Below are positions 3,069 to 3,392 of a stretch of DNA of 7,290 nt, in pieces. The notes under the pieces are model-generated. The model searched no databases. It saw only the letters and a list, made by a program, of their open reading frames with translations, and had not been told where the DNA came from. The DNA lies in the IMG/VR virus record IMGVR_UViG_2695420523_000003, one strand, 5' to 3'. The stretch is from a virus (Duplodnaviria; Heunggongvirae; Uroviricota; Caudoviricetes). The position numbers and the translations under genes are program-made. The first letter of the stretch is position 1; the number at the start of each line of letters is the position of its first letter.

Positions 3069-3392
3069 ATGGATGCACAAACACGCCGCCGCGAACGTCG
3101 CGCAGAGAAACAGGCTCAATGGAAAGCAGCAAATCCCCTGTTGGTTGGGGTAAGCACAAAACCAGTTAACCGCCCTATTCTCTCGCTGAATCGCAAACCG
3201 AAATCACGAGTAGAAAGCGCACTGAATCCGATAGACCTTACGGTGCTGGCTGAATACCACGAACAGATTGAAAGCAACCTGCAACGTATTGAGCGCAAGA
3301 ATCAGCGCACATGGTACAGCAAGCCTGGCGAACGCGGCATAACATGCAGAGGACGCCAGAAAATTAAAGGTAAATCTATATCACTTATTTAG
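3069..3392 (+). CDS. N: Antitermination protein N (107 aa)
   Basis: [28 protein letters not shown]...[10 protein letters not shown] matches lambda N, including the arginine-rich boxB-binding motif. An AGGAGA Shine-Dalgarno precedes the ATG at 3069. The track ORF starts at an upstream in-frame ATG (2991), which is not the N start. Confidence 0.9.

Follow-up and report, generated by a model that had tools for sequence, protein, structure and literature searches.

Prophages can carry a defence protein, Rip1 (ring interacting pore 1), which is harmless when made alone (Patel et al. 2026, Nature 651:1060, as reviewed in PMC13434031, from which the roles of its domains are also taken here). [quoted passage not shown] Twelve Rip1 subunits are described as encircling an 11-mer ring of small terminase, with the N-terminal amphipathic helices forming a pore and the infected cell lysing prematurely. 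The Pseudomonas counterpart, gp30 of phage JBD30, is a moron of 164 amino acids that gives phage resistance. The literature on the mode of action of JBD30 gp30 (2501-2995 of its locus) is in conflict, as the entry in a 2024 table, which cites Tsao 2018, reads “blocks phage genome injection”, while the 2026 description is of a pore that portal or terminase rings trigger late in infection.

The second group of closely related systems is defined by position. In lambda, sieB faces N tail to tail, and in P22 it faces gene 24. An antisense RNA of P22, sas, controls the translation of sieB during lytic growth. Ranade and Poteete are said to have reported in 1993 that sas is made by the superinfecting phage. 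Neither the gene described below, nor its family, nor the slot that it occupies is new, and antisense control of a gene in that slot is likewise known in principle.

The window, by which we mean the whole stretch of 7,290 nucleotides of viral DNA that was analysed, is a 7.3-kb segment from a lambda-like imm434 prophage that covers its immunity and early-left regions, with the orientation reversed relative to the lambda map (Table 1). The feature table of phage 434 (OL657226) was transferred colinearly with an offset of +1199, at which both N and nutL map exactly. The N gene matches Pfam N36 (E 6.5e-26) and PHROG 271, and is colinear with the annotated N of HK446, 434 and lambda. The next gene of the pL operon, ea10, is supported by both Pfam and PHROGs and is annotated in lambda and 434, and is followed downstream by cIII, kil, gam, bet and exo. 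An Rfam scan of the window matched the lambda cIII thermoregulator, a known element, at 4564-4622 (88.5 bits) and nothing else, with no match of the sas type. The start of the Hex-like gene overlaps the stop codon of cI within the sequence ATGA at 2313-2316, which matches the annotation of phage 434.

Table 1. Positions in the window of the early-left genes, the control elements and the rip1 gene
Feature	Position	Strand	Remarks
O, cII, cro		-	
Phage 434 repressor	1684-2316		
Hex-like gene	2313-2717		Downstream of the 434-type repressor
oL3-oL1 operators	~2768-2835		Transferred from phage 434
pL -10	~2834-2839		Transferred from phage 434
pL transcription start	~2847	+	Transferred from phage 434 (OL657226)
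nutL boxB hairpin, GCCCTGAAAAAGGGC	2896-2910	+	From the sequence and the 434 annotation
N, antitermination gene	3069-3392	+	Lambda type, 107 aa
Overlap of N and rip1 at their 3' termini, plus-strand sequence TTATTTAG	3385-3392		8 nt
rip1	3385-3879	-	ATG 3879-3877; 164 codons; TAA is the reverse complement of 3385-3387
Shine-Dalgarno-like AAGAGAG	3894-3888	-	8 nt before the rip1 ATG
Terminator-like hairpin and T-rich tract	3889-3928 (hairpin 3889-3911)	+	-10.5 kcal/mol; candidate tL1-like site
sieB-type promoter module	3896-3942	-	Alignment to the annotated P22 sieB promoter
Repeat copy 2, ACCCCTACAG	3905-3896	-	
Putative rip1 RNA start, A	~3905	-	Transferred from P22
Promoter -10, TAAAAT	3917-3912	-	
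Repeat copy 1, TACCCCTACAGCGAGAA	3940-3924	-	
Promoter '-35', TGTACC	3942-3937	-	
Intrinsic terminator-like hairpin and T run	4088-4118 (hairpin 4088-4109)	+	-12.9 kcal/mol; upstream of ea10
ea10 (DUF2528), next gene of the pL operon	4136-4504	+	Pfam DUF2528, E 3e-47

The minus-strand gene that faces N encodes Rip1. In a PDB sequence search its product is identical at 163 of 164 positions (E 1.4e-105) to chain L of entry 9oox, named “ring interacting pore 1 (Rip1)”, and a profile search against the same protein gives an E value of 6.4e-82. The chain in the PDB has the sequence of HK446 gp37, and the sole difference is at residue 96, which is a tyrosine in the window and a histidine in the PDB and HK446 protein. 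The near identity bears out the original prediction that this is a prophage-encoded host-protection gene. The same prediction had treated the ORF as unrecognised, which it is not: the HK446 record and PGAP both annotate it, its structure has been solved (PDB 9oox), and a distant paralogue, HkaP (27% identity, E 3e-13), already stands in the HK620 record as a putative superinfection-exclusion protein. Ring-triggered pore formation and protection against phages are reported for the near-identical protein, and are predicted for the allele in the window.

The Rip1 protein consists of a helical N-terminal half and a C-terminal domain with four cysteines. An AlphaFold model with a mean pLDDT of 69 has helices at residues 7-34 and 39-90 and a beta-rich domain at residues 93-158. 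In a family alignment the cysteines C121, C124, C148 and C151 are invariant in homologues that range from 25 to 98% identity, and the product is 30% identical to JBD30 gp30 (E 6e-26). The ORF also matches PHROG 1244 (E 4e-53), a family that carries no name, but has no meaningful match in Pfam, NCBIfam or PADLOC (2023). The Rip1 homologue of Pseudomonas phage VW-6B (2489-2995 of its locus) is mis-annotated as 'ATP-dependent chaperone ClpB', and overlaps its convergent neighbour by 4 nt.

The RefSeq record of phage ev099 (NC_049953) gives a different picture of the same region, as it contains a plus-strand ORF of 88 aa (3433-3699 in the window, 3094-3360 of the ev099 locus) annotated as a hypothetical protein, and has no minus-strand gene. 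Taken at face value, the real gene within 3393-3880 would be this plus-strand ORF and the minus-strand ORF would be spurious, a reading that is almost certainly wrong. The minus-strand product has a solved structure, its homologues keep the four cysteines at identities as low as 25%, and the gene is annotated on this strand both in HK446 and by PGAP. The plus-strand ORF is an in-register shadow of rip1 and its length is not statistically unusual, since 62% of synonymous-codon shuffles yield a stop-free run that is as long or longer. We therefore rejected it and take the minus-strand ORF to be the gene, as had been assumed.

Like sieB, rip1 is convergent with N and lies behind a sieB-type promoter. 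Over 3895-3980 of the window, identity to the sequence immediately preceding the start of lambda sieB is 87%, and over 3877-4117, identity to the sequence that precedes HK620 hkaP is 96.7%. In a Pfam search the SieB family (PF14163) was absent from the ORF, while the SieB proteins of lambda and P22 match it at ~1e-29. As SieB is unrelated to Rip1 and HkaP is a distant relative, while the upstream regions of all three are alike, the coding sequences have been swapped and the upstream region kept.

The mapping of the promoter rests on the GenBank feature table of P22 (NC_002371), in which the sieB promoter is placed at 29690-29720 and a 'sieB RNA start site' at 29727, marked as the A that comes before CCCCTACAG. 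Alignment to this annotated promoter puts that of rip1 at 3905-3942, inside the interval 3880-4135 in which it had rightly been expected, and predicts a leader of 26 nt. The alignment also identifies the module upstream of lambda sieB, P22 sieB, HK620 hkaP and the rip1 genes of Pantoea and Serratia. Its invariant core comprises TGTACCCCTACAGCGAGAA, five variable bases, a -10 element (TAAAAT, TAAACT or TAGTAT), six further bases and the second repeat copy listed in Table 1, and the Shine-Dalgarno-like AAGAGAG is conserved in the HK620 and Serratia modules. The '-35' is poor and the spacer is 19 bp. The -10 is bracketed by two direct CCCCTACAG repeats that lie 36 bp apart, and these may bind a regulator that alters the logic of expression; we know of no sigma-factor or regulator consensus sequence that matches the repeat. 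A hairpin in the rip1 leader that would hide the ribosome-binding site was considered and rejected because the putative start at 3905 falls within its 5' arm, and the hairpin would therefore form only in RNA of the pL sense.

The promoter of rip1 is separate from the repressor-controlled pL and is shared with sieB, which is expressed from the P22 prophage (PMC10883804), and for these reasons rip1 should be made in the lysogen. The expectation that the ORF is expressed from the prophage is in this respect well supported.

A 17-mer from the core of the module occurs in at least 120 viral contigs. Across these contigs and the reference loci, the cargo behind the module is SieB in 72 cases, Rip1 or HkaP in 29, a protein of 80-83 aa in three and nothing in 27. 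The members of this third cargo family begin MSDIP.. or MDLEMDIP.. (an example lies at locus coordinates 1140-1388), and a Pfam search with them gave no match. The upstream region of rip1 contains a mosaic junction at 3980-3985, where ral and orf28 are absent relative to lambda and homology resumes in the spacer between ral and ea10; HK620 and HK446 are arranged in the same way at this junction and up to ~4115. The G+C content is 34-43% over 3393-3950, which covers rip1 and its leader, compared with ~50% in N, and this is typical of an acquired moron.

The end of the rip1 gene was the starting point of the original prediction, which noted that the stop codons of N (TAG, 3390-3392) and of the ORF (TAA, at the complement of 3385-3387) lie within an 8-nt overlap of two convergent genes. 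This is correct, and as the two coding regions share 3385-3392 there is no intervening sequence in which a terminator could lie. An identical overlap is annotated in HK446, where gp37 occupies 25911-26405 and N 26398-26721, and it recurs in each of the 13 loci where this type of rip1 occurs together with a lambda-type N; the cassette is carried by 95 of 5426 complete E. coli genomes. Homology to lambda ends exactly at the N stop codon. The overlap thus arises because the ORF extends as far as the mosaic junction at the N stop and uses a TAA that lies inside the last codons of N (CTT ATT TAG) when these are read backwards.

Other members of the family are spaced differently, with rip1 homologues at -4, +3, +16 or +30 nt from the convergent gene, and the gap from stop to stop is 0 nt for lambda sieB and N and 20 nt for P22 sieB and gene 24. 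Convergent genes in this slot typically have their ends packed tightly (-8 to +30 nt), while the exact figure of 8 nt is the mark of one ancestral junction and has no further meaning. The claim that the overlap implies antisense control does not hold, as it implies nothing beyond convergence, and neighbours separated by 0-30 nt share the same logic.

Convergence does have consequences for transcription. The pL start on the plus strand and the rip1 promoter on the minus strand, both placed by transfer of annotation (~2847 and ~3905), direct overlapping transcripts towards each other, and pL transcripts must cross rip1 in order to reach ea10, cIII, gam, bet and exo. That they read antisense through the whole ORF is as predicted, but the proposal that this crossing depends on antitermination by N was not upheld. 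A terminator scan detected no intrinsic terminator-like site on the plus strand within 3393-3879, and so antisense reading of rip1 may not need N. Transcripts that have not been modified by N may cross rip1 too, unless Rho acts on the untranslated stretch of 740 nt.

On the plus strand such sites lie beyond the rip1 start. The site at 3889-3928 follows rip1 directly on the pL-sense strand, and is a candidate for a tL1-like terminator or for the point at which a sas-like RNA has its 3' end. A stable hairpin is formed there in P22 and Pantoea as in the window, lambda and Serratia have no stable counterpart, and the register differs from one variant to another. The stronger site at 4088-4118 is colinear with a feature annotated as 'terminator' in phage 434.

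Silencing of rip1 by antisense transcription from pL is plausible, by analogy with the precedent of P22 sas. A stronger version of this idea is that the convergent layout has been selected so that pL antisense transcription silences rip1 on induction, which would leave the phage free to build rings of its own terminase and portal without setting off the pore. At least four phage groups that are unrelated to one another have a Rip1 homologue in reverse orientation within a lytic operon, with examples in lambdoid prophages of Pantoea and Serratia, in Mu-like phages of Pseudomonas and in phages of Rhodobacter and Pelagibaca; among the contexts examined the only ambiguous case is vB_EcoM-689R2, where the orientation of rip1 relative to the early leftward operon is unclear. 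In P22, sieB shares the slot and the promoter and is controlled in lytic growth by the sas antisense RNA of the derepressed phage. The stretch between the N stop and the rip1 start is free of plus-strand intrinsic terminator-like sites, and a pore former that is triggered by structural rings plausibly needs some means to spare its own phage.

However, reverse orientation is a general habit of morons that gives them a repressor-independent promoter, as with Tab in JBD26, and orientation alone is therefore no demonstration of selection for silencing. Tab is also an example of self-immunity that is achieved through a separate protein, anti-Tab. Rip1 that was made before induction would last through one lytic cycle, so that ending its transcription may be too little to protect the phage once induced. 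An equally simple solution would be for the prophage to carry terminase and portal alleles that are insensitive to its own Rip1; in the account given in PMC13434031 the escape mutations map to these proteins, and the same review describes a comparable case in HepS and the Gifsy-1 J protein. A search for a dedicated sas-like promoter on the plus strand over 3760-3880, in the 5' part of rip1, found none that was convincing, also when the sequence was read manually. Internal Met codons are present in rip1. Selection of the layout for silencing is a tentative reading that, on balance, we consider rather unlikely.

Taken one step further, the crossing of rip1 by pL transcripts could act as a self-immunity switch, with the sieB-type module being a plug-in cassette that brings an antisense off-switch to any cargo placed behind it. 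The RNA responsible might be simple read-through, or a short sas-like RNA that ends at the 3889-3928 hairpin, and either form would stop new synthesis of Rip1, letting the phage assemble its own terminase and portal rings. This generalisation is doubtful at present and we offer it as speculation.

Interference could also run in the opposite direction. Because the stop codons overlap, every rip1 transcript enters N, and there is no convincing terminator before the reversed boxB of nutL, so that transcription of rip1 may continue through N in the antisense direction. Read on the minus strand, the boxB (2910-2896) forms a hairpin of -7.7 kcal/mol that is followed by TTAATTTTT, and this is the only terminator-like site on that strand downstream of the rip1 stop. 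A rip1 transcript that extended antisense through all of N to the reversed boxB might damp leaky expression of N in the lysogen. The suggestion is a structural one, for which we found no support in the literature, and several points count against it: the reversed boxB hairpin is weak, Rho could end the untranslated tail of the rip1 transcript earlier, and pL is already tightly repressed in the lysogen. We judge this form of control to be highly improbable.

The explanation that best accounts for these observations, and which we hold with high confidence, is that the ORF is the defence gene rip1 situated in the sieB slot, with a sieB-type promoter, an overlap that derives from the junction, and probably some antisense effect of pL. 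By analogy with the near-identical HK446 protein, the small terminase or portal rings of an infecting phage would trigger the assembly of twelve copies of Rip1 around the ring, the N-terminal amphipathic helices would form a pore in the membrane, and the infected cell would be destroyed before progeny mature. The gene holds the position that sieB has in lambda and P22, just downstream of N and in the opposite orientation, and is driven by the short module with its -10 at 3917-3912 and putative RNA start at ~3905. After derepression, pL transcripts are expected to pass N and to cover the whole of rip1 in antisense, where they may reduce its expression through collision of polymerases or formation of RNA duplexes. 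Reduction of rip1 expression by this route is likely to some degree, though it may be dispensable.

What mainly follows is that the annotation needs correcting, as the gene is rip1 and the RefSeq record of phage ev099 annotates the wrong strand at this position. If the antisense idea is true, it would account for the survival, on its own induction, of a prophage with a sensor of assembly rings, and it would mean that the sieB slot gives interchangeable defence genes a form of control that is on in the lysogen and off in lysis. The antisense point is useful but incremental, as P22 sieB and sas have already established the principle.

Comparison with the described systems places the locus as follows. 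The sieB genes of lambda and P22 have the slot and the promoter and 5'-leader module in common with rip1, are expressed from the prophage and, like Rip1, abort infection by other phages, but their products belong to a protein family (PF14163) that is unrelated to Rip1. P22 sas is the antisense precedent, as an RNA of the lytic phase whose sequence complements the 5' part of the exclusion gene in this slot. It differs from what is seen in the window in that it is a discrete RNA of 105 nt which makes translation change over from SieB to Esc, an in-frame inhibitor, while in the window only read-through from pL is evident. Tab of JBD26 is likewise a minus-strand moron with its own promoter inside a lytic operon and is a constitutive prophage defence, and its slot between the terminase genes is that of the Pseudomonas rip1. 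Its antagonist, anti-Tab, is a protein encoded on the operon strand, and the window shows no gene of this kind beside rip1.

The remaining comparisons are with proteins of the same family. JBD30 gp30 has the length of the window Rip1, 164 aa, and the same arrangement of a helical N-terminal half and a four-cysteine C-terminal domain, and it too is prophage-borne, reverse-oriented and a single-gene system. HkaP of HK620, annotated as a putative superinfection exclusion protein, is a distant paralogue of 164 aa (27% identity) with the same four cysteines, and is reverse-oriented in the pL operon; there, an extra gene, hkaQ, lies between hkaP and N with a gap of 30 nt, while rip1 of the window overlaps N. 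The closest system is HK446 Rip1 (gp37, PDB 9oox), a prophage-borne, reverse-oriented, single-gene system of 164 aa, as in the window, which differs from the window protein at one residue (163/164 identical). In HK446 the gene likewise overlaps N by 8 nt and is preceded by the same sequence up to 4115, but that phage has a different recombination module, while the prophage in the window combines 434 immunity with ea10, cIII, gam, bet and exo downstream.
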